From: Clostridia bacterium
GTDB taxonomy: Bacteria > Bacillota > Clostridia > UMGS1883 > UMGS1540
Length of the DNA: 64,000 nucleotides
NCBI GenBank assembly: GCA_045531205.1
Contig: JAZSDN010000003.1
Coordinates: 17,281-81,280, forward strand
Reading direction: 5' to 3'
The notes under the pieces were generated by a model, which worked only from the letters and a program-made list of their open reading frames with translations, was not told where the DNA came from and made no database searches. The stretch's first letter is position 1, and each line of letters starts with the position of its first letter. Below are positions 6,849 to 52,401 of the stretch, in pieces. The translations under genes were made by a program, and so were the position numbers.

Positions 6849-8105
6849 ATGAGTATACTTATAAAAGATATAAATATCCTTACCCAGGATAAACTTGTAG
6901 AAAAAACAAATATTTATATTGAATATGACAGAATAAGCTATATAGGCGAACGTACAAACTTTACAGCCGACACCGTAATTGAAGGCAGGGGCAGAACAGT
7001 AATGCCGGGCTTTGTAAATGCACATACCCATGCAGCAATGGTTTTAATGCGTGGTTATGCAGACGGTCTGCCGCTTCAAAAATGGCTTTTTGACTGTATT
7101 TTTCCTATAGAAGACAAGCTTTGCGATAAAGATATATACTGGGGAACAAAGCTTGCAATTTTAGAAATGCTTTCAACAGGCACAGTTTTGTTTAATGATA
7201 TGTACTTTTTCTGCGATACATTTTGCGAGGCAGTAAAAGAATCGGGCATTAAAGTTCTCTGTGCAAGAGGACTTACATCCGATAAAATCAGCGGATTTGA
7301 AAATGATGTTAAAATACTCGAAAATATAAAAACCTATGAAAGATTTAACGGCACCGAAAATAACCGAATACACATAACCTTCGGTCCCCACGCAATATAC
7401 ACCTGCACACCTGAATATATAGCAGAATGTGCAAAAATAGCAAGACAGTACAATGTAAAGCTTCATATACATTTGTCTGAAACCGAAACCGAAAATAGTG
7501 ATGCATTTATAAAGTATGGAAAAACTCCTACAGAGTTTATGCGTGATTTAGGTGTGTTTGACACAGGCTGTATCGCAGCACATTGCGTGCATCTTACCGA
7601 AAATGATATGGAAATATTAAAGCAGTATAAGGTTGATGTTGTGTATAATCCCGAAAGTAACCTTAAACTTTCAAGCGGAATAGCACCAATGAAAACTCTT
7701 TACGAAAAAGGAATTAACCTTTGTATTGGTACCGACGGTGCATCCTCAAACAACAACCTCAATATGATTGAAGAAATGCATACGGCAGCACTCTTGTCGG
7801 GAATCCCCACAAAAGACATATTCAAAATGGCAACACAAAACGGAGCACGTGCCCTCGGCTTTTACGATACAGGCGATGTAAAAGAAGGAATGAAGGCAGA
7901 TATCATAATAGTTGATACAGAAAAACCTCATTACTATCCAAAACACGATATGTATGCAAATATGGTATATTCGGCACAGGGTGCGGATGTTGACTATACA
8001 ATAGTTGATGGAAAAGTTTTGTATAAAGAAGGGGAGTATTTAACCCTTGATGCAGAAAAAATAAAGTATGAAGTAATGCAGGCAAAAGAAAGGCTTTTTG
8101 GATGA
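6849..8105 (+). CDS. mtaD: Amidohydrolase, 5-methylthioadenosine/S-adenosylhomocysteine deaminase type
   Basis: PGFVNAHTH metal-binding motif, HLSET and GTDGASSNN motifs of the ATZ/TRZ-MtaD deaminases. Confidence 0.7.
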   Translation: MSILIKDINILTQDKLVEKTNIYIEYDRISYIGERTNFTADTVIEGRGRTVMPGFVNAHTHAAMVLMRGYADGLPLQKWLFDCIFPIEDKLCDKDIYWGTKLAILEMLSTGTVLFNDMYFFCDTFCEAVKESGIKVLCARGLTSDKISGFENDVKILENIKTYERFNGTENNRIHITFGPHAIYTCTPEYIAECAKIARQYNVKLHIHLSETETENSDAFIKYGKTPTEFMRDLGVFDTGCIAAHCVHLTENDMEILKQYKVDVVYNPESNLKLSSGIAPMKTLYEKGINLCIGTDGASSNNNLNMIEEMHTAALLSGIPTKDIFKMATQNGARALGFYDTGDVKEGMKADIIIVDTEKPHYYPKHDMYANMVYSAQGADVDYTIVDGKVLYKEGEYLTLDAEKIKYEVMQAKERLFG

Positions 8106-8509
8106 GAATTTTAGGAATAGATTACGGTGACAGCCGTATAGGAATAGCGGTAAGTGATTTAATGGGAATGACCGCCCAGCCCGTGTGTGTTATAAGCGAA
8201 AAAGAACGGCAAAAACAGCTTACCGAGGTAGATAAGCTTATAAAAGAATATAAAGCCGAAAAAGTAGTTATGGGTATGCCCAAAAATATGAACGGCTCAA
8301 TTGGCGAGAGAGCCGAAAAAACAAGAAAATTCGGGCAGGAACTTGCAGAGTTTTCGGGAATACAGGTTATAGAATGGGACGAAAGACTTTCATCAGCCTA
8401 TGCCCATCGCACTCTTGAAGAAGGAAATGTCAGCGGCAAAAAAAGAAAAGGACTTGTCGATAAACTTGCAGCTGCTTTTATATTACAAGGATATCTTGAT
8501 GCTATTTAA
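8102..8509 (+). CDS. ruvX: Holliday junction resolvase-like / pre-16S rRNA nuclease RuvX (YqgF)
   Basis: ILGIDYGDSRIGIAVSD N-terminus, GMPKNMNGSIG, DERLSS. Confidence 0.9.
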   Translation: MRILGIDYGDSRIGIAVSDLMGMTAQPVCVISEKERQKQLTEVDKLIKEYKAEKVVMGMPKNMNGSIGERAEKTRKFGQELAEFSGIQVIEWDERLSSAYAHRTLEEGNVSGKKRKGLVDKLAAAFILQGYLDAI

Positions 8510-8524
8510 AAAAGGAGAATAATC

Positions 8525-8821
8525 ATGGAAGAAAACAACAACATTGTAACACTGGTTGACGAAGACGGAAATCAGGTAGAAATGGAAATAATCGATATAA
8601 TCGAAGATGACGGCAAACGTTACGCAGCAGGCGTTTATGTAAACGAAGAAGATGCCGAATCCGAAGAAGATATGGTATATATTATGCGTATAGTACCTGC
8701 AAATGATGAAGAGGATATGCTTGAGCCTATCGAAGACGAAGCAGAACTCAATAAAATATATTCAATTCTTCAGACAAGACTTGAAGAAGAATTCGAGTTT
8801 ACAGAAGAAGACGACGAATAA
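8525..8821 (+). CDS. DUF1292 family acidic protein
   Basis: 98 aa, very acidic. Conserved position after ruvX in Firmicutes. Confidence 0.75.
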   Translation: MEENNNIVTLVDEDGNQVEMEIIDIIEDDGKRYAAGVYVNEEDAESEEDMVYIMRIVPANDEEDMLEPIEDEAELNKIYSILQTRLEEEFEFTEEDDE

Positions 8822-8855
8822 ACCAAAGTAAAAATCATATACTAAAAAGGTAGAA

Positions 8856-9052
8856 ACATCCCTGCGGTGTACGCCATCCTCAAAAATTTTACCAACACTT
8901 ATAATGTAAGGGAGACAAAACCCGGTTGCGGCGTGTATGCCCCCCGAACCGCTTTTGCGGTCGGTATGAGGGAAACCCAGGAACAACCTGTAAGTCACCC
9001 ACCTGCGAAGCAGGTTAAATTTAAGAGGTTAAAAACGGCATTGCGGGGTAAA
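8856..9052 (+). ncRNA. ssrS: Candidate 6S RNA (SsrS-like structured sRNA)
   Basis: GC-enriched non-coding island. A 10-bp closing helix pairs 8860-8869 with 9039-9048; it includes G-U pairs that exist only on the + strand. A second helix pairs 8878-8889 with 9017-9028 around a 2x2 internal loop. There is a large central loop, and an apical hairpin pairs 8944-8952 with 8957-8964. The 5' bubble segment UUUUACCAACAC and the 3' bubble segment CCUGUAAGUC resemble what I recall of Bacillus 6S-1. Confidence 0.55.
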
Positions 9053-9061
9053 TAGATTTTT

Positions 9062-9090
9062 AGGCGGCCTATAAGGTCGCCTGTTATCTT
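9062..9090 (+). terminator. Hairpin after the 6S-like RNA (weak U tract)
   Basis: 8-bp stem pairing 9062-9069 with 9075-9082, followed by GTTATCTT. Confidence 0.35.
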
Positions 9091-9109
9091 ATATATTTTG
9101 AGGTTACAA

Positions 9110-10327
9110 ATGACATATAAACACACGCTCTACGCGTCCTACATAGCATATATGGTACAAGCCATAACAATAAATTTTGCACCCTTAGTATTTTACCGAT
9201 TTCAAACAGAATTTGAAGTATCCCTTCAAAAAATAACGCTTATAGTATCTCTTAACTTTTTTATACAGCTTTTAACCGACCTTACAGCGGGAAAAATCAT
9301 AAAAAAAGCGGGATACAGATTTGCGGCAATAACATCACAGCTTATGTGTTCTTTAGGTCTTATTCTTTTAGGAACATTACCTTACACACTTGAAAATCCC
9401 TACACAGGCATATTAATAGCAAACTGTATAATGGCAATAGGAGCAGGACTTTTAGAAGTAATAGTAAGCCCTATAATTGAAGCATTGCCACTCGGGCAAA
9501 AAGCTTCAAGAATGAATGTTTTACATTCCTTTTATTGTTGGGGACAAATGCTTTCAGTACTTTTGTCTACCTTGTTTTTCAAGTTTGTCGGTATAAACTG
9601 CTGGCGTTATTCTGCACTTATCTGGGCAATAGTTCCAGCATCAAACTTTATTCTCTTTTTAAGAGCACCGCTTTGCACCCTGCCCGCAGACGAAAAAGGC
9701 TTACCCCTTTTAAAAACAGTAACCCTCGGCAAACTTATATTGCTTATGCTTTGTATGATGAGTGCAGGTGCGGCAGAAATTTCAATTGCACAATGGGTTT
9801 CGTTTTTTGCCGAGGCAGGACTTGGCATATCAAAAGAACTTGGTGATATTATAGGTGTTTGTACCTTTGCCGCGTTTATGGGAATATCAAGAATATTCTA
9901 CAGCGTGTTTGATAAAAAAATAAACCTCGAAAAACTACTCCTTTATTCTGGAATAGGAAGTGTTGTATTTTACCTTCTCACAGTTTTTTCGCCCTGGCCA
10001 ATTCTTTCGCTTATATCCTGTGCACTTATAGGTGCATCAATAGGCTCAATGTGGCCGGGAATAATAAGCCTTTCAGTAAAAACCTTTCCAATGGCAGGGG
10101 CAGCACTTTTTGGGCTTATAGCCTTTTCGGGAGATTTTGGTTGTACCGCGGGTCCCGGTATAGTGGGACTTGTATCAGATAAAATGATAACCTTGGGCTT
10201 CACCACAGAGTATGCGTTAAAAACAGGTATATTCGGAGCAACAGTTTTCCCTGTAATATTTTTAATAAGTATATGTTTAATTAACATAAAAAACCGAAAA
10301 AAGGTGAATAAATGTTTGGATATGTAA
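9110..10327 (+). CDS. MFS transporter
   Basis: About 12 TM segments. Start placed at the ATG at 9110 rather than the TTG at 9098. Confidence 0.75.
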   Translation: MTYKHTLYASYIAYMVQAITINFAPLVFYRFQTEFEVSLQKITLIVSLNFFIQLLTDLTAGKIIKKAGYRFAAITSQLMCSLGLILLGTLPYTLENPYTGILIANCIMAIGAGLLEVIVSPIIEALPLGQKASRMNVLHSFYCWGQMLSVLLSTLFFKFVGINCWRYSALIWAIVPASNFILFLRAPLCTLPADEKGLPLLKTVTLGKLILLMLCMMSAGAAEISIAQWVSFFAEAGLGISKELGDIIGVCTFAAFMGISRIFYSVFDKKINLEKLLLYSGIGSVVFYLLTVFSPWPILSLISCALIGASIGSMWPGIISLSVKTFPMAGAALFGLIAFSGDFGCTAGPGIVGLVSDKMITLGFTTEYALKTGIFGATVFPVIFLISICLINIKNRKKVNKCLDM

Positions 10328-28200: not shown

Positions 28201-29349
28201 ATGAAAAAATTATTGGCATTGATTTTAGTATTGGCATTAAGTGTATTTATGCTTTCGGGTTGTATGGCAATAAAAGAAGAAATCGTTATAAATGCAGACG
28301 GAAGTACAGCAATAACAGCATTTGCAGGCTACACAGAAGAAGGACTTGAAATGATAATGTCCGCAATGGGGGCAGAGGATACAGCCGCTTCAGTTGAACA
28401 GTTTAAAGCAGAAGCACAAGCTATCGAATATAACGGAATAAAATATTACGGTAAAACCGAACAAAAAAACTATGCTACAGTTGAAGAATATAATCAAGCA
28501 ATCGAAGAAGAAACTACAGACTCTTACGAAAAACTTGAAAAGCATGCTGACGGAAGCTTTACCTATACAATTACTTTAACAGGGGATGAACTGAAAGATG
28601 AGCTTGAAGGTGCAGGCTACGATGATGCACAGACAGAAGAAATTATAAAAGAAATGTATGCAGCTTATGAAATCACTTTCCCCCAAGATGTAAAGCAGAT
28701 AGCAGGAACAAGCGATGGCATAACAATTTCAGGAAACAAAATTATAATTGACGTTGTTAAAATAGTCAAGTCAATTAAAGATGCCACAACCTTTATATTT
28801 ACAACATCCAAAGCATCAGGCTTTACAGATGTATTGCCCGAAGCATGGTACTACGCAGCAGTAACAAAAATGGCACAAGGCGGGCTTGTTAACGGTGTAG
28901 GGAATAATCTTTTTATGCCCGAGGTTACATTAACATACGCACAGTTCTGTCAGATTATGGCACGTGCAAAAGGTATTGGCACAGGTGAAATAAATAATTA
29001 CTGGGCGGGCAAAGCGGTAGAAGGATGTGTAAACGCAGGCTATATAATAAGCCGCGGAGAAATTACCCCCGAAAATTATGATGTTGCAATTCCAAGGGAA
29101 GCAGCAGTTGCAGCAATGTATCTTGCTAAAAAAGACATCATAACAGTAACTAACACCTTAACAATTGCAGATATTCCTGACGGCGATAAAATATCACCCG
29201 AATATAAAGAGGCAGTTTTAGCGGCATATAATACAGGAATTACACAGGGCGTCGACGAAAACCGTACCTTTAATCCCGATAAAACATTAAGAAGGGCAGA
29301 AGTATGTCAGTTATTCTTTAACCTTGACTGGACAACTGCAGCACAATAA
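28201..29349 (+). CDS. Lipoprotein with C-terminal SLH-like repeats
   Basis: Signal peptide with lipobox LSGC. The C-terminal half has SLH-like repeats (FTDVLPEAWYYAAVTKMAQGGLVNG..., ...TLRRAEVCQLFFNL). Confidence 0.65.
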   Translation: MKKLLALILVLALSVFMLSGCMAIKEEIVINADGSTAITAFAGYTEEGLEMIMSAMGAEDTAASVEQFKAEAQAIEYNGIKYYGKTEQKNYATVEEYNQAIEEETTDSYEKLEKHADGSFTYTITLTGDELKDELEGAGYDDAQTEEIIKEMYAAYEITFPQDVKQIAGTSDGITISGNKIIIDVVKIVKSIKDATTFIFTTSKASGFTDVLPEAWYYAAVTKMAQGGLVNGVGNNLFMPEVTLTYAQFCQIMARAKGIGTGEINNYWAGKAVEGCVNAGYIISRGEITPENYDVAIPREAAVAAMYLAKKDIITVTNTLTIADIPDGDKISPEYKEAVLAAYNTGITQGVDENRTFNPDKTLRRAEVCQLFFNLDWTTAAQ

Positions 29350-32176: not shown

Positions 32177-34813
32177 ATGAGCATTTACAAAGAGGGAAAC
32201 AACATTATTTTCGAAGACAGTTTTTCAAAAATAACTCTTTCCAAAAAAGATGCAAAAGTGAAGAGTATTATCGATAAAACTGTGCAAAAAGAAATCAGGG
32301 GAGCTGAAACTCACTTTTTTTATCTTGTAGCAGAAGATGAAAAAACATTTCTGCTTCCATCTGAATTAAGTTTAGAAGAAAATATTGTAACTGTAAGAAC
32401 AAAAACAGGTAACTTCAAAATTGAAGTTTGCGATAAGGAACAGTATTTTACATTTGAACTTAAAACAGCTTTGCCTGCATGCTATAAAGCAGTAATAGCA
32501 CACGCAAAATACGATTATGATTTTAACAATAAACAAAACTGCGCAGCTGCAGGTATAGCTATGACTTACTGGGCAAACCCATGCCTTTATCCTGATGCAG
32601 CTAATATGGAAACAAAAGCAGAAGTCATTCAACATTTAAAGGATAAAGATGCAAAATATGCACTCATCATAGCACCCATTGCTATGCATAAAGAAATTAT
32701 AAAAGAAGTATCCCTTACAATAGACAAAAATTATGGCATTGTTTCTAGAGTTGGCGGTGCGTGGGGAGAAGATTGCAAAGATAATTACAGAAATAAAATA
32801 AGTGTACATGAATTGCCTTACGAAAAAATGCTGGAACAACTTGAATTTTATAAAACTTTGAATATAGGAATAGTAGATTTTAATCAGGGATGCAATTTTT
32901 GTCAGGGAGATTTCGAGCCTGTTTTTTATAAAAATAATACAGAATTCAAAGAAAAAGCTGTAGCTGCTTTAGAAAAAGAAAATATAATAGCAAGCTTACA
33001 CACCTATTCTGCATATATAGATTATAATTGCAACAGCATCCTTTCAAATCCAAAATGGCAAAAACAATTAGCAACACTTGAAACCTTTACTCTTTCTGCC
33101 GATATTGACGAAAATGCGCAAGCTTTACCAGTTATGGAACCTACTGATAATGTTATAGACGATGTCTCCGGACTTAAAGGCTTTTTTACAAGAAGCACAC
33201 CGTTTTTACTTGTAGGTGAAGAGCTTATAAAATTTAAAAATTCAGAAAACGGGTTTGAATCAATACAACGCGGTGCTTGCGGAACAAAAGCATCTGCCCA
33301 TAAAAAAGGCGAAAAGGTTTACCATCTTGACGGATATTACAGGGGTATTTTGCCGGCTCTTTGTTCAAATCTTTTCTTTGAAATTGCACGCAATACAGCA
33401 AAAGCATTTAACGAAGGCGGATATGGTGCAATATATCTTGATGCATTAGATGGGCTTTACCATCATATAAAAAGAGAAGAAGGATGGTTTTATTTTGCAG
33501 CATTTGTATGCGAAATATTAAAGCATTGTAATAAAGACCCGCTAATAGAGTATTCAACAATAGAACCAAGTATATGGCCTGCAAGAGGTAATGCCAAGGC
33601 ATTTGATTTCCCGACCAGAGGATATAAAACCTTTCAAAAAATCCACAAAAATGATAATGAAAGATTTAAAAAGATATACTATGCGACCACTTCAGGATGG
33701 TACAATATATATCCTTATACAGAAACTCTCTACGGTAACGAAACAATAAGATATCATCATACCGATGATATAGAAAATCTTGGATTTTTATCCTTGCAGA
33801 CTAACAGTAGTATGGTATACTGCAATAACTCCGAAGAATACAAAACAATTCCCGCGTTAAAACGTAATATTGCAATATATTCAAAATACGATAAACTTCG
33901 TCAAAACAACTATTTTTCAAAAGATTTTCTTAAAAAATTTCAAAACGGAGAATATGAATATCACGTTGAAAAGATGGGCGAAAACGATTATGCCGTTGTT
34001 GAATGGGACTACCAGAAGAAAAAACTTTATAACCTTCGTGACGAAAAAAGAAATATAAAAACCTTTAAAAATCCTTTTTCAAATCAAACACCTTTTATTC
34101 GTATAGAAGCATTTATGTCAGCCGATGACGGATATGAAAAAGTGTTTATGAACTTTGATAAAAGCAAAGACCTTACACAGCAGCCTCTTACAAAAATTTT
34201 CGAAACGCCCTTTGACCTTACAGATTTAATGGTAAAAAAGGTTTCTGTTTTAGGCAATGGCAAAAAGGGAGGAGCAATCAGTATTTCAATGGGTGATAAA
34301 AGTGCCCGAAGTCTTGCAAAATACTATATTGATACAGATTTTGAAGGTTGGCGTGATTTTGTACTTATCGAAACAGATAACGGAGAGCGTCCTGATCTTG
34401 AGCTTGATAGTATCGAAAAAAACGTTTTTTATATTCTCTTACGCGAAAGATTTAAATACAACAAAGTAAAAGAAGGATATATCGAAACAGAAGGCGATGT
34501 AAGCGGAGTAAAAATATCTGATATTACGCTTACAAAACGTAGCTTTGAAGTTTTAAAAAACCCAACTGTTACTGTAGAAAATACAAAAATTATTTTTGAA
34601 TGTGATTTAAAAAGCACTGACTTTATCGAGTTTGACGGAAAAACAGCAAAAATGATTGACAAAAAAGGTAACGAAACCGAGATACCTTTTAAAGGCAAAC
34701 TCGTTGTGCCGGAAGGTGAATTTATGGCAAAATTAACAGCAGATGCTCAAAATCAAAATCCATTAAGAGCACAGTTAACATTTGGTTTTAAAGGAAAATG
34801 TATAAAAGAATAA
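32177..34813 (+). CDS. 878-aa cytoplasmic protein of unknown function (possible glycoside-hydrolase-like multi-domain enzyme)
   Basis: Long uninterrupted ORF with AGGAGGAG RBS and no signal peptide. I recognise no family. The central region has barrel-like strand/aspartate patterns (GIVDFNQG, GAIYLDALDG). Confidence 0.8.
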   Translation: MSIYKEGNNIIFEDSFSKITLSKKDAKVKSIIDKTVQKEIRGAETHFFYLVAEDEKTFLLPSELSLEENIVTVRTKTGNFKIEVCDKEQYFTFELKTALPACYKAVIAHAKYDYDFNNKQNCAAAGIAMTYWANPCLYPDAANMETKAEVIQHLKDKDAKYALIIAPIAMHKEIIKEVSLTIDKNYGIVSRVGGAWGEDCKDNYRNKISVHELPYEKMLEQLEFYKTLNIGIVDFNQGCNFCQGDFEPVFYKNNTEFKEKAVAALEKENIIASLHTYSAYIDYNCNSILSNPKWQKQLATLETFTLSADIDENAQALPVMEPTDNVIDDVSGLKGFFTRSTPFLLVGEELIKFKNSENGFESIQRGACGTKASAHKKGEKVYHLDGYYRGILPALCSNLFFEIARNTAKAFNEGGYGAIYLDALDGLYHHIKREEGWFYFAAFVCEILKHCNKDPLIEYSTIEPSIWPARGNAKAFDFPTRGYKTFQKIHKNDNERFKKIYYATTSGWYNIYPYTETLYGNETIRYHHTDDIENLGFLSLQTNSSMVYCNNSEEYKTIPALKRNIAIYSKYDKLRQNNYFSKDFLKKFQNGEYEYHVEKMGENDYAVVEWDYQKKKLYNLRDEKRNIKTFKNPFSNQTPFIRIEAFMSADDGYEKVFMNFDKSKDLTQQPLTKIFETPFDLTDLMVKKVSVLGNGKKGGAISISMGDKSARSLAKYYIDTDFEGWRDFVLIETDNGERPDLELDSIEKNVFYILLRERFKYNKVKEGYIETEGDVSGVKISDITLTKRSFEVLKNPTVTVENTKIIFECDLKSTDFIEFDGKTAKMIDKKGNETEIPFKGKLVVPEGEFMAKLTADAQNQNPLRAQLTFGFKGKCIKE

Positions 34814-35014: not shown

Positions 35015-35557
35015 ATGAAAGATAATAAGTACAAAGGAACACAGACAGAAAAAAATCTTGCAGCAGCTTTTGCGGGCGAATCACAGGCGAGAAATAAATA
35101 CACATATTTTGCTTCAAAAGCAAAAAAAGAAGGCTTTGAACAGATTGCAGCCCTCTTCTTAAAAACAGCCGATAACGAAAAAGAACATGCAAAAATCTGG
35201 CTTAAAGAATTAAACGGAATAAGCGATACAGCAGAAAATCTTGTTGATGCCGCAAACGGCGAAAATTATGAATGGACAGATATGTACGCAGGCTTTGCAG
35301 AAACAGCCGAAAAGGAAGGCTTTATAGAGCTTGCTGCAAAATTCCGTATGGTAGCAGCTATCGAAAAAGAACATGAAGAACGCTATCGTGCACTTTTAAA
35401 GAATGTTGAAACTGCACAGGTATTCGAAAAAAGCGAAGTTAAAGTGTGGGAATGCCGTAACTGCGGTCATATTATGGTTGGAACAAAAGCACCTGAAAAA
35501 TGCCCTGTTTGCGACCATCCTCAGAGCTACTTTGAATTAAATTGCAAAAATTATTAA
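35015..35557 (+). CDS. rbr: Rubrerythrin
   Basis: Ferritin-like diiron domain (ExxH repeats) plus a C-terminal rubredoxin-like CRNCGH...CPVCDHP. Confidence 0.9.
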
Positions 35558-35560
35558 AAA

Positions 35561-35594
35561 CAATTTGGTCAGGCTTTTTAAGCCTGACCAAATT
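35561..35594. other. 14-bp perfect hairpin without a 3' U tract on the + strand
   Basis: AATTTGGTCAGGCT / AGCCTGACCAAATT. A-run on the 5' side only. Confidence 0.5.
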
Positions 35595-35616
35595 ACTATG
35601 CTATAAGGAGAAAAAT

Positions 35617-37473
35617 ATGAACAGTTATCTCAATGCTTTTATAGGAGAAATAAATGCTGAGTTTTCGAAAAAGCATAATCAGGCTCTTACAAAAAGGGAA
35701 ATGCCGCAAACAACACCCGCCATTGCCGAAGCGGTTGATTATATATGCGAGCTTTTGCAGAGTGTGGGCTTTAAGCCAGAACGTATTGACTTTCCATCCG
35801 ACGGAAAAACCTCATATCAGGATAAAATAATGCCTATATGCTGGGATGTAAAGAGAGCTAAACTCACAGTAATGTCCGAGTGGGAAGGGGAAAGAGTAAT
35901 TGCTGATTACGAAAAAGAACCCTTTTCAATAATAAGATATTCAACCGAAACACCAAAAGAAGGTCTTACAGCACCCCTCGTTACATGGGATGATATGATA
36001 GCAGGGAAAAGCGTAAAAGATGCCTTTGTATTGCTTCCGCAAGGAATGTTTCCAACAGATAAAGCCCTCGTTCCCATTTTAAATAATGGCGGAATAGGAA
36101 TAGTCAGCGGAACCATAAGTTCAAGCGTTGAAAGACCTGATTCACTGCATTGGGGAAATAACTGTACAGAAACAAATTCCTGGCATGTAAATGCCGACGA
36201 AAGACCTTTTTTGGCATACAGTATAACACCAAGAACTCTTGAAAAGCTTGAGAATGCATATAAAAAAGGAGAAATCATATTAAAAGCAGAAAGTGACGGA
36301 CACCGCTTCGAAGGAACAATGCCCGCAGTAACAACACTTTTAAAAGGAGAAAGCGAAAAAGAATTCTGGGTGCTTGCCCATACAGCAGAGCCTCTTGAAG
36401 ACGACAATTCGGCGGGCGTTATTTGTTGTATACAGTCTTTAATGGCAATAAAAAAAGCTTTGGCAGAAGGAAAAATACCTTCTCTTAAATATTCAATACG
36501 CTTGCTTTTTGCACCCGAAATGTATGGCTTTGCAGCCTTTGCAGAACATTTTGGAGGACAACTTCATAACCGTTGTATAGGTGCTTTGAACGTTGACGGA
36601 ATCCCCGTAAACGAGGAAACTGATACAATGAAAATTATGTTTGCACCTGCAGCCGTTCCTTTTTACGGAAATATACTTTTTGAAGGAATGTGGGACGAAT
36701 ACAGAAGAACAGTTAAAAAAACACCTTTCTTCACCTCCTGGAGTGACCATTGGGGAGATGACTGCATTCTGTCCGATTCATCTGTAGGGCTTCCGACTCT
36801 TATGCCCGAATACGACAATAAATATTCCTGGCATAATTCAGAACAATGCGTAGACGGTTGTATAGATTACGATAAATTTGCAAGAGTCTGTGCAGTTTAT
36901 ACAGCATACATAGCCTCTGTTGCAGCTTATGACGGCAAAATACTCGAAAAATTCTTGCCAATGGCAGTAAGTTATGCATCGGCAAGAATAGCGGAACTTG
37001 CTCAAAAAGCACCCGAAAGAAAAGGAATTGACGCAAAAGCAAGAATAAATCACAGAAAAATTTTAGAACAAAATAACATCAAATCCTTTAAAGATGCAGG
37101 TGTCAGCGAAGAAGCAATAAACAAAGCCTGCAGTATGCTTGATGCTTTCGTAAACGGAATAACACCTGTTCCCACAGAAGAAAAAACAGAACCTACACCC
37201 GTATTTGATTCAATGGAAAACATAATCCCCAAAAGGACTTCCATAGGTGTTCCGCACGATTTTGCAAGAGTACCATTAGAGCGAAGATGGCATCCTATTA
37301 ACGAGAATATTTTGAACAGAGTATTCTCTTCAATGGACGGAAAAAGAAACCTCAAAGATTTGATTATCGAAGCAGAATGGGAAGCCCGCACAGCATTTAG
37401 TGAAGCCCAGCTTACAGACCTTATCGAAACTTTAAAGTTTATGGATGAATTTAAATATATAAAGCTTAACTGA
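35617..37473 (+). CDS. M28/aminopeptidase-fold-like protein (DUF4910-like), function unknown
   Basis: Start moved to the ATG at 35617 (AAGGAGA RBS) because the longer ORF would include the hairpin. The AHTAEPLEDDNSAGV...LLFAPEMYG pattern recalls aminopeptidase-like DUF4910/DUF2172 proteins. Confidence 0.45.
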   Translation: MNSYLNAFIGEINAEFSKKHNQALTKREMPQTTPAIAEAVDYICELLQSVGFKPERIDFPSDGKTSYQDKIMPICWDVKRAKLTVMSEWEGERVIADYEKEPFSIIRYSTETPKEGLTAPLVTWDDMIAGKSVKDAFVLLPQGMFPTDKALVPILNNGGIGIVSGTISSSVERPDSLHWGNNCTETNSWHVNADERPFLAYSITPRTLEKLENAYKKGEIILKAESDGHRFEGTMPAVTTLLKGESEKEFWVLAHTAEPLEDDNSAGVICCIQSLMAIKKALAEGKIPSLKYSIRLLFAPEMYGFAAFAEHFGGQLHNRCIGALNVDGIPVNEETDTMKIMFAPAAVPFYGNILFEGMWDEYRRTVKKTPFFTSWSDHWGDDCILSDSSVGLPTLMPEYDNKYSWHNSEQCVDGCIDYDKFARVCAVYTAYIASVAAYDGKILEKFLPMAVSYASARIAELAQKAPERKGIDAKARINHRKILEQNNIKSFKDAGVSEEAINKACSMLDAFVNGITPVPTEEKTEPTPVFDSMENIIPKRTSIGVPHDFARVPLERRWHPINENILNRVFSSMDGKRNLKDLIIEAEWEARTAFSEAQLTDLIETLKFMDEFKYIKLN

Positions 37474-37477
37474 AAAA

Positions 37478-37520
37478 AGCCGAATAAGTTGCATTAAAGA
37501 CTTATTCGGCTTGACTTTTT
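37478..37520 (+). terminator. Rho-independent terminator
   Basis: AGCCGAATAAG / CTTATTCGGCT stem followed by TGACTTTTT. Confidence 0.7.
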
Positions 37521-37540
37521 GTTTTATTATGTGTTATAAT
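37511..37540 (+). promoter_or_regulatory. Candidate sigma-A promoter of the SLH/kinase/PqqD/peptidase/ABC operon
   Basis: TTGACT, 18-nt spacer, TATAAT. Confidence 0.55.
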
Positions 37541-37580
37541 CATAATATATTTATTTTTATAAGAAAAAGAGGTATTTTTT

Positions 37581-38228
37581 ATGAAGAAAATAATTTCGTT
37601 AATACTTTCAGTACTTATGCTTTCGACAATTACAACAGGCGCCCTTGCAGCAGACTTTACCGATATTTCAGGACATTGGGCAGAAGGTGTAATAAAAACA
37701 TGGAGCGACCGTGGAGTTATCCAGGGGTATAACGGCCTTTTCAGACCTAACGATAATATCACAAGAGGCGAAATGGCAGTAATAGTAAACCGTATAGTAA
37801 CTATCGAAGGTAAATCCGAAAACACATTTACAGATTTACCTGCTGACGCATTTTATACAGAAGCCGTGTTAAAGCTTAACTTTGCAGGCATTATGCTTGG
37901 TTATAATAACCTTGCACGTCCTACAGACAATATAACAAGAGAAGAAGCTTTTGTTATATTTAACCGCATATTTGAGTTCGAAAAAACCACAGAAACAGCA
38001 TTCCCTGATGCTGCATCAATTTCAGAATGGGCACTTGACAGCGTGTATGCTCTTGCCGAAAACAAAGTAGTAAACGGACGTGATGACGGATGCATATATC
38101 CTAAAAACAATATTACCAGAGCAGAAGTTATGCAGCTTTTAGAAAATGCATATAAAGCAGTAGGCCAGCTTACAGAAAGCGAAGGAACAATAGGCGGAGA
38201 CGATATCGAAACAGGCGGAATCTGGTAA
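37581..38228 (+). CDS. Secreted protein made of three SLH repeats plus a short acidic Gly-rich C-terminal tail
   Basis: Sec signal peptide (…TGALA/ADF). Three SLH repeats (FTDISGHWAEG..., FTDLPADAFY..., FPDAASISEWA...). Tail GQLTESEGTIGGDDIETGGIW. Confidence 0.8.
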   Translation: MKKIISLILSVLMLSTITTGALAADFTDISGHWAEGVIKTWSDRGVIQGYNGLFRPNDNITRGEMAVIVNRIVTIEGKSENTFTDLPADAFYTEAVLKLNFAGIMLGYNNLARPTDNITREEAFVIFNRIFEFEKTTETAFPDAASISEWALDSVYALAENKVVNGRDDGCIYPKNNITRAEVMQLLENAYKAVGQLTESEGTIGGDDIETGGIW

Positions 38229-38238
38229 GGAGAATAAA

Positions 38239-38949
38239 ATGGGCAGCTTTCAAATCAGGTGTGCAAACCTCACGGTACAATTAAATACCGAATATGAGTA
38301 TGCCAAAAAAGCATGCTCTAAGTATATTGTTTCAGGCTTAAAACCTGACTTTGAGCTTACCCCTTCCAAAAAAGTGATTCAACAAACGGCAGATTTCCTT
38401 AAAACAGAATCGGTAGAATATATAGAATTTATGTCACTTTTCCGTATCTTTGCAAGAGAGGTTTTAAAACATAATGCAATAGTTCTGCATTCTGTAGCCT
38501 TGGCACTTGATGATGAAGGATATGTTTTTTCGGCACCTTCAGGAGTTGGAAAAACCACGCACGCAGCATTATGGAAAAAAGCTTTTGGTGAAAGATGCTC
38601 CATAATAAACGGAGATAAACCACTTATAACCTTTTCGGATAACAAATTTTATATAAGCGGAACACCATGGTGCGGAAAAGAAAGACTTTCAGAAAACCGC
38701 AGTGTACCATTAAAAAGCGTTTGTTTTATCGAAAGGGCAGAAAAAAATTCTATTTCTAAAATTGAAACAGGCGAGGTTATTAAAAGATTATTTAATCAGC
38801 TTGCAATTCCTATGGCAGGAGAGCCAACAATGCCGCTATTTTTATCATTTGCCGATAAAATGGTAAAAAACCTGCCTTTTTATCTTTTAAAATGTAATAA
38901 GGAAGAGGAAGCGGCACATATAGCATACAAAGGTTTAAGCGAGGAGTAA
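38239..38949 (+). CDS. HPr kinase C-terminal-domain-like P-loop protein (putative peptide/protein kinase)
   Basis: P-loop APSGVGKTTHAALW (nt 38539-38559) followed by IINGDKP. This resembles the HprK-like proteins that accompany PqqD in peptide-modification cassettes. Confidence 0.55.
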   Translation: MGSFQIRCANLTVQLNTEYEYAKKACSKYIVSGLKPDFELTPSKKVIQQTADFLKTESVEYIEFMSLFRIFAREVLKHNAIVLHSVALALDDEGYVFSAPSGVGKTTHAALWKKAFGERCSIINGDKPLITFSDNKFYISGTPWCGKERLSENRSVPLKSVCFIERAEKNSISKIETGEVIKRLFNQLAIPMAGEPTMPLFLSFADKMVKNLPFYLLKCNKEEEAAHIAYKGLSEE

Positions 38950-38952
38950 TTT

Positions 38953-39216
38953 ATGAAACTGAAACAGGATTTAACTATACATGATATGGGTGACGAATTT
39001 GTAGTTATTTCGTCAAACCCCGAAAGTTTCAGCGGTATGATGAAACTTAATAAAACAGGAGCATTTATTTTTGAAAAATTACAGGAAAACCTTTCAAAGG
39101 AAGAAATAGTAAAAAAACTTCAGGAAAAATATGAAGTAGAAGAAAAAACAGCAGCTTCTGATTTAGAAGATATTTTAAAAATTTTTGAACAGTCAGGCTT
39201 GATGTGTAATGAATAA
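38953..39216 (+). CDS. PqqD family protein (RiPP recognition element-like)
   Basis: 87 aa. Pattern ...EFVVIS...MMKLNKTGAFIFEKL...SKEEIVKKLQEKYEV...AASDLEDIL fits the PqqD winged-helix family. Confidence 0.7.
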   Translation: MKLKQDLTIHDMGDEFVVISSNPESFSGMMKLNKTGAFIFEKLQENLSKEEIVKKLQEKYEVEEKTAASDLEDILKIFEQSGLMCNE

Positions 39217-39640
39217 TGACCCTATGAAAACCATGCTCTTGATAAAAAAAGAGCTTGAAATATCCCCTGGCGGAATAAGTATGAGTCCCTTTTTAAAAGA
39301 AGGGCGGGACAAAGTAATAATAAAAGAATCGCAAGATTTAAAGCTTTATGATATAGCACTTTATAAAGTACATAATGAGTATATTCTTCACAGAATAATA
39401 GGCTTTGAAGGGAATACGTTAGTAATAAGCGGAGATAACGCACGCCTTATCGAGAAAAAAGAAAAAGAAGAAATAATAGGTGTTGTTACAGAAATCATAC
39501 GCCGAAAAAGAAAAATAAATCCACACTCGCTTTTGTGTGAATTATATTGTTTTTTATGGTATAAAACAGGGATAAAGAAAATAAAAATATTTGCACGCAG
39601 AGTAAAAAGAAAACTAGGCAGAATTTTTGCCGAAAGGTAA
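39209..39640 (+). CDS. S26/S24-type serine peptidase, Ser/His (SipW/ER-like) variant
   Basis: GISMSPFL (Ser nucleophile), YDIALYK, ILHRIIG (His where bacterial SPase I has Lys) and SGDNA. No N-terminal TM. Basic amphipathic C-terminus. Confidence 0.55.
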   Translation: MNNDPMKTMLLIKKELEISPGGISMSPFLKEGRDKVIIKESQDLKLYDIALYKVHNEYILHRIIGFEGNTLVISGDNARLIEKKEKEEIIGVVTEIIRRKRKINPHSLLCELYCFLWYKTGIKKIKIFARRVKRKLGRIFAER

Positions 39641-39677
39641 GTGAAAAACACTGAATAACAAAAAAACATTACTTTGG

Positions 39678-41327
39678 ATGTTAAAAAAATCAAAAAGTCA
39701 GCAAGGATTAATATTTGTGCTGGCTCTTTTAAATATTATTGTTTCCGCATCGTATGTATTACCGGCACTGCTGTCAAAAGAGCTTATAAATATAGCAGTA
39801 GGTGCAAAAAGCTTTGAATCGGTGCAGGGTGATATAATAAAATACGGGCTTTTTTTGCTTTGTGTTATAGTTACACAGATAATACTTGCAATATTAGCAT
39901 CTCACCTTTCTGCAATGATATCAGGCAGACTTGAAATGGAACTTCGTAAAAGTTTTTTTGATAATATAACGCAAAAAAATTTCTCGGATATTACAAAAAA
40001 ACATTCGGGAGAAATTTTAAACCGTTTCACAAGCGATATTGATATAGTTGTACAAGGGATAACAGGCTTTTTGCCAAGAACACTGTCTATGGCAACAAAA
40101 ATAATAGCAGGTCTTTTGGTTATTGCTTCGTTCAGCAAAAAGTTTGCACTTTTAATTATAGCAGTCGGTCTTGCAATGCTTTTAATAGCTGCATTTTTCA
40201 AAACCTTTTACAAAAAGCTTCATAAAAAGGTTCAAAGTGCATCGGGAACAATGCGTGGATTTGTGCAGGAATGTACCGAAAATCTTATAGTTGTAAAATC
40301 CTTTTCAAATCGAAAACTGCTTCTTGTAAAGCTTATGGAATATATGCGTAAAATTTATAAACTCAAGATGTTTCGTAATTTTGTAAGCAACTTTGCAGGC
40401 GGCGGAGTAACCTTTATTTTCACACTCGGTTATTATGGAACATTGTGTTATTGTTGCTTCCTTCTTGCCGACGGAAAAATGGATTACGGTACACTTATGG
40501 CATTTTTGCAGATTATTTCGCAAATACGCTCACCCTTTGTAAATGCATCGGGACTTGTTACCCAGTTTTACAGTGCCCAAGCCTCGGCCGAACGTCTTAT
40601 GGAGTTTGAGTACCTTGCAGATGAAGAAACCGACGATAACTTTGAAACAGAAAAAGTTTATAACGCTATGCAAAGCATAAAAGCCGAAAATCTTTCCTTT
40701 AAATACGGAAAAAATAATGTTATAGAAAATTCCAACTTCGAGATAAAAAAAGGCACTATGACAGCAATAACAGGTCTTTCAGGCACAGGTAAAAGTACAC
40801 TCTTCAAACTGCTTTTAGGGCTTTATAAAACAAGTGGAGGAAATCTTTGTTTTAAATTAGAAAACGGAGATGTGGATATTTCTTCAAAAACAAGACAAAT
40901 GTTTGCCTATGTTCCTCAAGGAAATCTTTTGATATCAGGAACAGTTGCAGAAAACATAAAATTTGCAAAAGAAAACATCAGCGATGAAGAAATGTATTCA
41001 GCGGCAAAAACTGCGTGCATATATGACTTTATAAAAACTCTGCCCGATGGATTTAATACATATATAAGCGAAAGGGGAGCAGGCCTTTCCGAAGGGCAGA
41101 TACAAAGAATTTCGGTAGCACGTGCACTTTGCAGTAACGCACCAATTCTTTTGCTTGATGAATGTACATCCGCACTTGACAGCGAAACTGAAGAACAAAT
41201 GCTTCAGAATATAGCATCACTCAAAACAAAAACAGTGCTCTTTATTTCACATAAAAATGCAGCATTGTCAGTGTGTGACTCGCATATAGATATAAGCAAC
41301 AAAACCTTTAAAAAGATTACAAATTAA
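39678..41327 (+). CDS. ABC exporter, fused permease/ATPase (no C39 peptidase domain)
   Basis: Six TM segments, then Walker A GLSGTGKST, signature LSEGQ and Walker B ILLLDE. Confidence 0.9.
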   Translation: MLKKSKSQQGLIFVLALLNIIVSASYVLPALLSKELINIAVGAKSFESVQGDIIKYGLFLLCVIVTQIILAILASHLSAMISGRLEMELRKSFFDNITQKNFSDITKKHSGEILNRFTSDIDIVVQGITGFLPRTLSMATKIIAGLLVIASFSKKFALLIIAVGLAMLLIAAFFKTFYKKLHKKVQSASGTMRGFVQECTENLIVVKSFSNRKLLLVKLMEYMRKIYKLKMFRNFVSNFAGGGVTFIFTLGYYGTLCYCCFLLADGKMDYGTLMAFLQIISQIRSPFVNASGLVTQFYSAQASAERLMEFEYLADEETDDNFETEKVYNAMQSIKAENLSFKYGKNNVIENSNFEIKKGTMTAITGLSGTGKSTLFKLLLGLYKTSGGNLCFKLENGDVDISSKTRQMFAYVPQGNLLISGTVAENIKFAKENISDEEMYSAAKTACIYDFIKTLPDGFNTYISERGAGLSEGQIQRISVARALCSNAPILLLDECTSALDSETEEQMLQNIASLKTKTVLFISHKNAALSVCDSHIDISNKTFKKITN

Positions 41328-51063: not shown

Positions 51064-52401
51064 TCAGCCTTCGCTGAAGAAGTTTTGTGTGTGATAATAT
51101 GTGTAGGTACTGTTGGGATTACATGCAATACCAACACCAAGATAATCATAATCGCTTAACATATTTTCTCTGTGACCGCTTGAATTTACCAATCCGTAAA
51201 AAGAATGAAAACCTAAAAATTTTCCACCGCCTCCGGAAATATTTTCGCCAGACTTCCTCAAATTGATACCCTGCGCTGACATTCTTTGAGAGCTTGAAAG
51301 GCCATTTCGATTTGTATGTGAAAAATAATCGTTTTCTGCCATATCTTCGCTGTGAAGCTTTGCTGATTTTGCTGCCTTTTCACTCCATTTAAAAGGTTTT
51401 AAATTATGCATAACCCTGAAAGCATTGGTAAAATGAAAGTTCATTTTGCCCTCATCTAAAAGCTGTTCATCCGAGAATGATGTTATGTCATACCGCACAG
51501 GGTTATAATTGTCATTAAATAGCTTTATACTGTGTATTTTATTATTGTCGTTTGAATCGGCATAAATTCCGTAAATTGTTTCATCTCCTATTATGTCGCC
51601 ACATTTATAATCAAGATATGAAAAAGCTTTTCCTGTTGATGCAATAGCAACTATTCTGTCGGCATCCACACCTATTGCATAAAAGTTTTTGTAAGTATCT
51701 GTACCATAAACATTCCACTTGAAATTGCCAGTTGATTCAAGAGTTTCGTCGGGAGAATCCAAAGACTCTGTGCTCATACCCAAAAACAATTTTTGATTAT
51801 TTATATATATGATATTTTTTTCCAGATATGAAATTGTATTATAAACAAAACGTGCAACATCACCACGATTTGCAGCTTTACTACCATCACCATACATAAT
51901 GTCATAGTATGCTGTTAAATCAATAATGTTCGTGTTACGCGCTACCTCCACATAGCCTTTTGGCCAGCCACCTTTCTGTGCGGCATCATATTCCATTCCC
52001 GCCATGCACACAAGCATTTTTATTATTTCGTAATAGGTTACTTTGTCATCAGGAGCAAACATGCCATTGCCCATGCCATTTATAATTTTATTTTCTGTTG
52101 CAGCCATAATATAACCGCAACCCCAAAAATCATTTTCAACGTCGTAATATACACTTTCAGCAGAAGATTTTGGAATTTCTGCAGCACGGGTAATTACAGC
52201 AGCAGCTTCTGCTCTTGTTATTTTACCTTCGGGTCTGAAGGTAGAATCATCGTATCCGTTAATAATACCTTTTTTACTTAAATTCATTATAGCATCATAG
52301 TACGGACTTTCCTTTGATACATCAGAAAAGCCTTCAGCACATACCGGAAACGAGATAGTAATACATAAAACCATTAGTAAACAAATAACTTTTTTAAACA
52401 T
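51064..52401 (-). CDS. Secreted SLH-domain protein with C-terminal CAP (SCP/PR1-like) domain
   Basis: Signal peptide. SLH repeats (FSDVSKESPYYDAIMNLSKKGIINGY...). C-terminal CAP motifs (HSEDMAENDYFSH, GENI, GHRENML). Confidence 0.8.
   Translation of the reverse strand: MFKKVICLLMVLCITISFPVCAEGFSDVSKESPYYDAIMNLSKKGIINGYDDSTFRPEGKITRAEAAAVITRAAEIPKSSAESVYYDVENDFWGCGYIMAATENKIINGMGNGMFAPDDKVTYYEIIKMLVCMAGMEYDAAQKGGWPKGYVEVARNTNIIDLTAYYDIMYGDGSKAANRGDVARFVYNTISYLEKNIIYINNQKLFLGMSTESLDSPDETLESTGNFKWNVYGTDTYKNFYAIGVDADRIVAIASTGKAFSYLDYKCGDIIGDETIYGIYADSNDNNKIHSIKLFNDNYNPVRYDITSFSDEQLLDEGKMNFHFTNAFRVMHNLKPFKWSEKAAKSAKLHSEDMAENDYFSHTNRNGLSSSQRMSAQGINLRKSGENISGGGGKFLGFHSFYGLVNSSGHRENMLSDYDYLGVGIACNPNSTYTYYHTQNFFSEG

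Follow-up and report, generated by a model that had tools for sequence, protein, structure and literature searches.

A probable clostridial branch of LPP-type peptide maturation beside wall-binding proteins with a cassette-specific C-terminal tail

Introduction

Linear Polyphosphorylated Peptide (LPP) clusters of Bacilli came to light through a search for archaeal-type signal peptidases in clusters for peptides that are made by ribosomes and modified after translation (RiPPs), and their genes, lppA-K-B-S-D-N, encode a precursor, an HprK-like kinase, a discrete RiPP recognition element (RRE), a SipW-like peptidase, an MsbA-like exporter and an NTP_transf_5 protein (Popov et al., Nat Commun 2026; PMC13381572). 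The LppA leader reads YxxPxVLxHQxIxFETxxS (Px9Fx[T/A]), LppK polyphosphorylates Ser3 of the core, and LppS (S29/H68/D93) cuts after T-1, only with LppB, and works in a membrane-free translation system with the cytoplasmic RRE, while in the crystal structure of LppB with the leader N33, D70 and F74 hold the YxxP segment (PMC13381572). The kinase group is annotated with TIGR04249/TIGR04352, the signal peptidase I (SpI) with TIGR02228 and the exporter with TIGR02203/4, and the family is defined by cluster 1 of a sequence similarity network (SSN), with edges of E <= 1e-23 to LppS-like SpIs. The same work names SipW as a homologue of LppS, places LPP loci in capsule loci, and lists in its Supplementary Data 1 clostridial SpI and RRE pairs of SSN clusters 4, 9 and 20, with the precursor given as 'ND' (PMC13381572). 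Here we describe a five-gene operon from a Clostridia bacterium (assembly GCA_045531205.1, contig JAZSDN010000003.1), lying in a 64-kb stretch that we call the window and to which all window-wide absences refer, together with related loci that carry LPP-like genes.

The operon opens with a gene for a wall-binding S-layer homology (SLH) protein and continues with a kinase, an RRE, a peptidase and an exporter. SLH domains attach proteins to wall polymer, and the SLH protein of this operon ends in a C-terminal tail found next to the cassette only. Taken as a whole, the reading that we favour, with moderate confidence, is that the operon represents a clostridial LPP-type branch in which the SLH tail is a second client.

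Enzymes and exporter of the operon

An initial annotation of this DNA, made from the letters alone, had named an HprK/PEPCK-fold kinase, a PqqD-family RRE, a Ser/His S26 peptidase and an ABC exporter without a C39 domain downstream of the SLH gene, and all four identities held up (Table 1). Its view that the module was undescribed no longer holds, because a kinase, RRE, SipW-like peptidase and MsbA-like exporter in the same order define LPP and had already been published (PMC13381572).

The predicted kinase carries a P-loop, SGVGKTT, at residues 101-107, together with the invariant H84, NGDKP (124-128) and GTPWxGKE (141-148), and the invariant pattern of its family includes SGxGK[T/S]TH. Its AlphaFold2 model (pLDDT 95.2) matched PEPCK and HprK/P in Foldseek (E 1e-6 to 1e-4), and 357 homologues were found, with PF27840 as the family label. 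The top NCBIfam match was TIGR04249 (E 2.8e-6, 26.9 bits against a cut-off of 125), with 15.9 bits on TIGR04352 (cut-off 200). A local copy of Pfam gave no valid match to this protein; the PPV_E1_C match returned there was rejected as spurious, and the family was settled by the fold search and the PF27840 label. On account of the PEPCK/HprK fold and the best match to TIGR04249, we count the 236-aa protein as a predicted HprK-like kinase of the TIGR04249/TIGR04352 type.

The 87-aa protein scores as PqqD, again as the initial annotation had proposed. It also matched models of lasso peptide B1 proteins (1e-8 to 1e-9, below their cut-offs) and scored 15.8 bits on TIGR04353 against a cut-off of 35; its nearest structures in the PDB were TbiB1, TfuB1 and 9x90, lasso B1 proteins being the nearest. 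A hidden Markov model (HMM) of the RRE family detected LppB at 27-45 bits. Within the family N33 is conserved in 66/68, D70 in 63/68 and F74 in 59/68 sequences, and the window protein keeps N33 and D70 with Ile at position 74, so that by its sequence it is a discrete RRE with putative YxxP-leader-binding residues.

The 143-aa peptidase shows the invariants S24 (SMxP), H61-R62 (LHRIIG) and G75-D76-N77, and a His occupies the position of the Lys of bacterial signal peptidase I, as in the Ser/His enzymes of endoplasmic reticulum (ER), archaeal and SipW type. By sequence it matched signal peptidase I 4nv4 (E 9.5e-4), its fold is that of the S24/S26 peptidases (structure matches to SpsB, LexA and SipA), and its relatives fall in TIGR02228, with archaeal signal peptidase I and SipW models as top NCBIfam matches. 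A k-mer-filtered homology search yielded 6 relatives only and was replaced by an exhaustive profile search, which returned a family of 3,132 clusters at 50% identity (E <= 1e-10). The HMM of this S26 family gave 49-58 bits on LppS, which it matched along the full length, and 165 bits on SSN cluster 9. When compared with the few sequences per SSN cluster taken from Supplementary Data 1 of PMC13381572, the window peptidase was 25-29% identical to three cluster-1 LppS sequences (E 1e-5 to 2e-3) and found its best match in SSN cluster 9 (uncultured Ruminococcus, 36% identity, E 3e-21).

Neither the sequence nor the model of the peptidase has an N-terminal hydrophobic anchor or signal sequence; the one hydrophobic stretch present, a helix of 12 residues, lies close to the C-terminus and precedes a basic helix, and the protein ends in two basic C-terminal helices. 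Because it lacks such an anchor or signal, its catalytic domain should be cytoplasmic, and because kinase, RRE and peptidase (hereafter the trio) are all predicted to be without signal peptides or membrane anchors, the trio as a whole should act in the cytoplasm. A membrane-anchored enzyme of SipW type, with an extracytoplasmic catalytic domain, was considered and set aside, as there is no N-terminal hydrophobic segment.

This topology bears on the possibility that cleavage of the SLH protein's Sec signal peptide is the dedicated task of the 143-aa protein, as a SipW-like signal peptidase. The motifs of S26B Ser/His type and the NCBIfam matches of the relatives would suit such a role, as would the Sec-type or lipoprotein-type signal peptides with which the aromatic-tailed proteins upstream of the kinase begin (see below). 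However, apart from the missing anchor and signal sequence, the homologue LppS is active in a membrane-free system with a cytoplasmic RRE, the peptidase is fused to an RRE or to NTP_transf_5 in other organisms, and most trio loci have no neighbouring secreted protein, and we consider this role very unlikely.

The 549-aa exporter, in which Pfam detected no C39 peptidase domain, scored 236 bits on the MsbA model TIGR02203, below its cut-off. An exporter lies at most 5 kb from the kinase in 10 of 80 genome loci and is missing from most tail-bearing loci; the window and an 84%-identical relative (L001) both keep it. Judged from these sequence comparisons, the machinery of the operon is very probably homologous to that of LPP. 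Nevertheless, because the peptidase is 25-29% identical to LppS and neither an LppN gene nor an LppA-type precursor is present, the window proteins are outside the LPP family as delimited in PMC13381572.

Table 1. Coordinates of the operon, its signals and its neighbour in the window, and of large secreted proteins in related loci (locus named before the coordinates).
Feature	Position	Strand	Remarks
Intrinsic-terminator-like hairpin	37477..37512	+	14-pair stem, 8-nt loop, T-rich tail; closes upstream 643-aa gene
Putative sigma-70-type promoter TTGACT-18-TATAAT, TG extension	37511..37540	+	consensus match 11/12
SLH wall-binding protein, 215 aa	37581..38228	+	three SLH repeats, PF00395 E 1e-35
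C-terminal motif TIGGDDIETGGIW-COOH, residues 203-215	38187..38225	+	cassette-specific
LppK-like P-loop kinase, predicted HprK/PEPCK fold, 236 aa	38239..38949	+	'ScmC' family PF27840 (database annotation)
Discrete RRE, PqqD family, LppB-like, 87 aa	38953..39216	+	PF05402 E 2e-14
LppS-like S26 peptidase, SipW/archaeal type, 143 aa	39209..39640	+	candidate catalytic Ser24/His61/Asp76
Half-size ABC exporter, LppD/MsbA-like, 549 aa	39678..41327	+	ABC_membrane + ABC_tran
FNT-family channel-like gene, 196 aa	41347..41937	+	PF01226 E 2e-28
Large secreted protein	L089 546-2282		
Large secreted protein	L090 3117-4832		
Large secreted protein	L093 3079-4827		
Large secreted protein	L036 46-2442		
Large secreted protein	L058 5102-9439		
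Large secreted protein	L002 10848-12305		

The C-terminal tail of the SLH protein

The SLH protein begins with a Sec-type signal peptide (residues 1-23, ...GALA|ADF, read from the sequence), which is followed by the SLH repeats and then by the tail, whose consensus, IGGxD[I/L]E[T/A]GGIW-COOH, takes up the last 12-13 residues. Nearly all of the closest homologues (41-55% identity, 212-314 aa) end in ...[A/I]IGGxD[I/L]E[A/V/T]GGIW or in ...ID[D/K]NI[I/V]xAG[E/K]IxW, and the linkers ahead of their tails differ in length and are often acidic and Gly/Ser-rich. No such tail is present in distant SLH proteins in the homologue alignment.

In every one of nine inspected loci with a W-tail SLH gene (the window, L001, the L002 group, L089, L090, L091, L093, L094 and L097) the kinase, RRE and peptidase genes follow directly downstream in this order, and W-tail SLH loci span at least 8 distinct flanking contexts. 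Likewise, an HMM of the tail, run over the C-termini of 11,939 ORFs in 93 loci, returned 15 matches at E < 1e-4, all 15 of them encoded directly upstream of a kinase gene; the next match stood at E 0.03 and the remainder was noise. SLH homologues that end in K (...WAGEIK or ...WLGKIK), not in ...GGIW, are encoded at L095 1340-3120 and L092 969-1622, of which L092 has no cassette and L095 a decayed one, with the kinase cut to 115 aa and the peptidase absent. JGI metagenomes were also searched with a degenerate DNA pattern that encodes D[I/L]E[x]GGIW and ends in a stop codon. Of its 11 matches one was a real gene (L097); the remaining matches were rejected because they were not ORF ends or came from W-W read-through.

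Since the tail occurs next to the cassette only, the SLH protein is likely to be a dedicated partner of the cassette system, and we regard a functional link between the two as probable. Similar tails (...TIGKNDVYASPLW, ...GVGGNDQYAGGIW) close an unrelated secreted protein of 110-147 aa (c13) encoded at the same position, and these rank right after the SLH tails among the 11,939 ORFs when the HMM is built from SLH tails alone. That the tail is common to two unrelated scaffolds is, at the level of sequence, suggestive rather than proven.

Proteins encoded upstream of the kinase with aromatic-ended tails start with Sec-type or lipoprotein-type signal peptides. At the position of the SLH gene, loci L032, L057 and L080 (81-106 aa), L037 (96 aa) and L075 (125 aa) encode small proteins of lipoprotein type whose bodies are acidic and of low complexity and whose ends contain aromatic residues (...NDILGPDWTLPQQ, ...GGTDPYVEDIF); the tail HMM gave no match to them, and their ends may be further tail classes. 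The SLH-type loci L002, L091 and L094 lie inside capsule/exopolysaccharide loci with CpsB_CapC, AAA_31 tyrosine-kinase-like and Wzz genes. A literature search joining S-layer homology domains with RREs found nothing.

Small precursors in related loci

There is no room for a small precursor between the genes of the operon, and three scans with regular expressions for the LPP leader gave zero matches in the window and in 92 related loci. The first of these expressions were too strict for clostridial leaders, which a looser expression and an HMM detected, and small precursors of 45-62 aa were found in 20 related loci, for instance at L090 4853-4996. Their leader, Y-x-[K/R]-[P/A]-x-A-E-V-x-x-F-D-L-x-E-V-[Y/R/Q]-M, is followed by one of three core types: an acidic, Gly-rich core, with 'SKSDG' in SLH-type loci; a Cys-rich core preceded by ...FDNSDV[I/V]TTSG and encoded beside a SPASM radical SAM enzyme; and a weaker class in loci that bear NTP_transf_5. 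The HMM of the relatives' leaders found nothing in the window, L001, L091 or L094, its best hit (E 2.5) being noise, and the absence of a small precursor in cis, claimed in the initial annotation, was thereby confirmed across the 64 kb. Because it is missing from the window, the usual small client of the window cassette has either been lost or has its gene in another part of the genome.

These absences favour one alternative, in which the SLH protein is the sole substrate of a re-purposed cassette and its C-terminus is trimmed or modified in the cytoplasm, with export of GGIW or formation of a new ...DIET end. The window, L001, L091 and L094 would fit, having a W-tail SLH gene and no small precursor in cis; furthermore, the tail occupies the precursor-gene position directly 5' of the kinase, the W terminus is gone where the cassette is lost or decayed, and the ABC exporter kept in the window and in L001 could carry a small product. 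However, the RRE retains the YxxP-binding residues N33 and D70, the tail has no conserved phosphorylatable residue, our view of this genome spans 64 kb only, and L089, L090, L093 and L002, the closest loci with more sequence, have a small precursor and a tail protein together. We therefore think it rather unlikely that the cassette acts on the SLH protein alone. The initial annotation had offered two alternative substrates, the co-transcribed SLH protein and a peptide whose gene lies elsewhere, and the evidence points both ways, with the leaders of the relatives and the retention of N33 and D70 speaking for a peptide and the tie between tail and cassette for the SLH protein.

In a sub-branch (L007, at 7439-7600 and 7710-9116, L008, L013, L051 and L056) the trio is joined by a radical SAM/SPASM enzyme of 450-530 aa. 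The precursors there are 50-60 aa long and combine the leader ...AEV[I/V]LFDNSDV[I/V]TTSG with Cys-rich cores; this points to a RiPP of thioether type with the S26 enzyme as its leader peptidase.

Large secreted proteins (485-1524 aa, partly Gly-rich) adjoin the small precursor genes in relatives (Table 1). They have in common a C-terminal domain of ~130-250 aa without a Pfam match and without a counterpart in the window, and they may represent one more part of the machinery. Upstream of the operon the window has ORFs of 878 aa (32177-34813, no Pfam match) and 643 aa (35542-37473, weak DUF4910 match only), and neither product shows homology to these large secreted proteins.

Secreted proteins of this kind bear on a serious rival, according to which the SLH protein works outside the cell as a wall-anchored receptor, scaffold or dock for an exported phosphopeptide and the tail is an epitope. 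Anchoring of SLH domains to wall polymer is established, the linker ahead of the tail is variable and often acidic and Gly/Ser-rich in homologues, a third secreted protein with a common C-terminal domain lies beside the precursor gene in relatives, and several of the loci, like those of LPP, are found within capsule loci. Nonetheless, a docking role leaves the strict C-terminal position of the tail and its likeness to the putative cleavage sites unexplained, and the exporter is missing at most tail-bearing loci. We give it a modest chance, well short of an even one.

Distribution, fusions and selection

Using one genome per species, we located kinase relatives at 578 or more loci and retrieved 80, all from Clostridia or from unclassified gut/rumen metagenome-assembled genomes. 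Enough downstream DNA was available at 67 loci, with the RRE present in 43, the peptidase in 45, both in 36 and neither in 15, in agreement with the conservation of neighbours expected from the initial annotation. NTP_transf_5 was found at 6 and a SPASM radical SAM enzyme at 4 of the 80 loci. The trio is retained across differing genomic contexts.

In most trio loci the genes upstream are housekeeping genes, e.g. lysA or glyQS, with no adjoining secreted protein, and the trio is found without SLH in hundreds of species. These two observations would fit an SLH gene that is a passenger kept by synteny beside a cassette serving a trans-encoded peptide only. Yet the association of motif and cassette is strict over at least 8 flanking contexts and seen on two unrelated scaffolds, and the tail is conserved while the linker before it is free to vary, so that a mere passenger is, in our estimate, unlikely.

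Natural fusions were also encountered. P0116 (L006 277-1278) is a kinase-RRE (PqqD) fusion, and the S26 peptidase is fused with PqqD, NTP_transf_5, an ABC exporter or a sugar-transfer ATP-grasp domain in P0250, P0258, P0300, P0395, P0303, P0375 and P0364; the S26-ABC fusions P0303 and P0375 are a serine-protease analogue of C39-ABC bacteriocin exporters. Because kinase-RRE, RRE-peptidase, peptidase-ABC and peptidase-NTP_transf_5 fusions occur in nature, we take the components to form one system.

Against L001, the ratio of non-synonymous to synonymous substitution (dN/dS) was 0.07-0.19 over the five genes (dS 0.6-1.4), with 0.15 for the SLH protein and 0.07 for the kinase. The cassette is under purifying selection and, given these ratios for all five genes, is being maintained. 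As the window has neither a precursor nor NTP_transf_5, and as L095 has clearly decayed, the window cassette could otherwise be taken for what is left of an LPP-like or lasso-like cluster in decay, its precursor and tailoring genes already gone. However, the five ORFs are intact, the candidate catalytic residues are conserved, L001 keeps the same five genes under the constraint just described, and lasso genes lie beside no annotated SLH-type locus, which makes decay highly improbable.

Locus layout and flanking genes

The promoter directly after a terminator, the five genes on the + strand and their spacings (10 nt, 3 nt, an 8-nt overlap and 37 nt) were all reproduced from the initial annotation. 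The putative promoter is the top-scoring match within 35-44 kb and overlaps the terminator hairpin; as a class, promoter-like sites occur at chance level (29, against 28.6 in shuffles). Good Shine-Dalgarno sequences precede genes 1-3. With tight gaps and no predicted terminator inside the operon, co-transcription of the five genes, as first proposed, is plausible.

The FNT-like gene begins 19 nt past the stop codon of the ABC gene, with an AGGAGG ribosome-binding site and no intervening terminator, and a predicted transcript may be longer than the five genes and include it. L001 has pyruvate formate-lyase (PFL) and PFL activase genes in its place, and because it is not conserved in this relative the FNT-like gene is probably a passenger. 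Genes of formate metabolism flank the cassette in both the window and L001. Two more ORFs with SLH domains are present in the window, at 28201-29349 (+) and 51064-52401 (-), neither with a W-ending tail. The base composition of the DNA gave no hint of recent transfer.

Discussion

By homology with LPP, we infer the biochemical steps of the cassette, any processing of the tail included, as follows. The PqqD protein would bind the leader segment of a client in the cytoplasm and hand the client to the HprK/PEPCK-fold kinase, which would phosphorylate a hydroxyl residue near the cleavage site, and to the Ser/His S26 peptidase, which would remove the leader from RRE-presented substrate only; the ABC exporter would then carry the product out of the cell. 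The usual small client would be a peptide of 45-62 aa with a YxxPxAEV leader, and the SLH tail would be a second, protein-sized client, recognised ahead of Sec export.

For the tail, this role is tentative. It is favoured because the tail stands in the precursor position, must be C-terminal and resembles cleavage sites: the segment D-[I/L/V]-x-[T/A]|[G/S] (here D-I-E-T|G-G-I-W) is similar to the putative precursor sites [D/E]-[V/I]-x-[T/M]| and to F-E-T| of LppA. As neither HMM cross-matches, this likeness is one drawn by eye over four residues. A further likeness seen by eye, between ...GDQY of L036 and ...NDQYAGGIW, was discarded, being backed by neither HMM and possibly an effect of composition.

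Several observations weigh against the reading that we favour. The tail lacks a conserved Ser, Thr or Tyr, and with it an obvious kinase substrate; it also lacks the YxxP motif, whereas LppS cleavage requires an RRE-bound leader. The leader HMM did not match the tails, nor the tail HMM the C-termini of precursors, and the HMM built from SLH tails only scores the c13 tails at E 0.28-3.3, individually not significant. The window has neither a small precursor nor an NTP_transf_5 gene, and the kinase stands alone in 15 of 67 loci. Finally, by our own reading, a secreted protein with an aromatic-ended tail precedes the kinase in only ~13 of 80 unbiased loci, and the tail partner is therefore not universal.

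A bolder extension is possible, if doubtful: IGGxD[I/L]E[T/A]GGIW-COOH would be a C-terminal tag of a new kind, for processing or for sorting, through which RRE-guided RiPP machinery acts on full-length, Sec-destined wall proteins before export. Were it true, a tetrapeptide of GGIW type would be clipped off, possibly as an exported signal, or a wall-anchored protein would bear a modified C-terminus, and a large group of gut Clostridia would apply RiPP-style maturation to surface proteins as well as to small peptides.

The analysis in PMC13381572 was confined to Bacilli, and Clostridia of gut and rumen very widely encode homologous machinery. There it has its own leader type and several types of cargo, namely acidic linear cores and Cys-rich cores accompanied by a SPASM radical SAM enzyme, and one branch appears hard-wired to wall-anchored or secreted proteins with a cassette-specific C-terminal tag. 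This tag is a testable handle on the role of LPP-like peptides and, together with SLH anchoring and capsule loci, points to the cell surface.

Among phosphorylated lasso peptide clusters, those of paeninodin and pseudomycoidin type in Bacillota resemble the cassette in that an HprK-like kinase is encoded together with a PqqD (B1) protein, an ABC exporter and often NTP_transf_5, and in that the kinase works on an RRE-presented precursor. The leader peptidase is a cysteine protease there and a serine S26 enzyme here, and Pfam searches found neither an Asn-synthetase-like cyclase nor a transglutaminase-like B2 protease in the operon, in the 6 kb on either side or in the annotated SLH-type relatives. 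Two cassettes that are predicted only, SynChlorMet (ScmC, TIGR04249) and HPr-rel-A (TIGR04352/TIGR04353), likewise place a P-loop HprK-related protein beside a PqqD-family protein, although the window proteins score far under the equivalog cut-offs. No peptide-maturing radical SAM enzyme, ScmE/ScmF included, was found by Pfam in the operon +/-6 kb, and here, as with the lasso enzymes, the initial annotation proved correct; in a few relatives a SPASM radical SAM gene does lie beside Cys-rich precursors. A literature search for SynChlorMet and ScmC returned unrelated acronyms only.

Bacillus subtilis encodes in its tapA-sipW-tasA operon a signal peptidase of ER type, SipW, that is dedicated to TasA and TapA. 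The present operon similarly encodes an S26B Ser/His peptidase beside a secreted protein that it possibly serves. It differs in that its peptidase has no membrane anchor and is accompanied by an RRE and a kinase, and in that LppS, the characterised homologue of this peptidase, cuts a cytoplasmic RRE-bound leader.

The closest counterpart is LPP itself, which the window resembles in its K-B-S-D gene order and enzyme set, in the RRE residues N33 and D70 and, for the predicted kinase, in the TIGRFAM models matched. The relatives add a Y-x-x-P leader, several capsule-locus settings and, in some, NTP_transf_5. In contrast to LPP, the peptidase of the window lies outside SSN cluster 1, nearest to cluster 9; the window has no LppA-type leader and no lppN, an HMM of the relatives' NTP_transf_5 having found nothing in the 64 kb; the leader consensus of the relatives is Y-x-x-P-x-A-E-V-x-x-F-D-L-x-E-V-x-M; and the hosts are Clostridia, not Bacilli. 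In addition, this branch has a tail-bearing secreted protein encoded between precursor and kinase, an arrangement not reported in PMC13381572. While this kind of machinery is already known, what is new here is the cassette-specific C-terminal tag on wall-anchored proteins, together with a distinct leader type.

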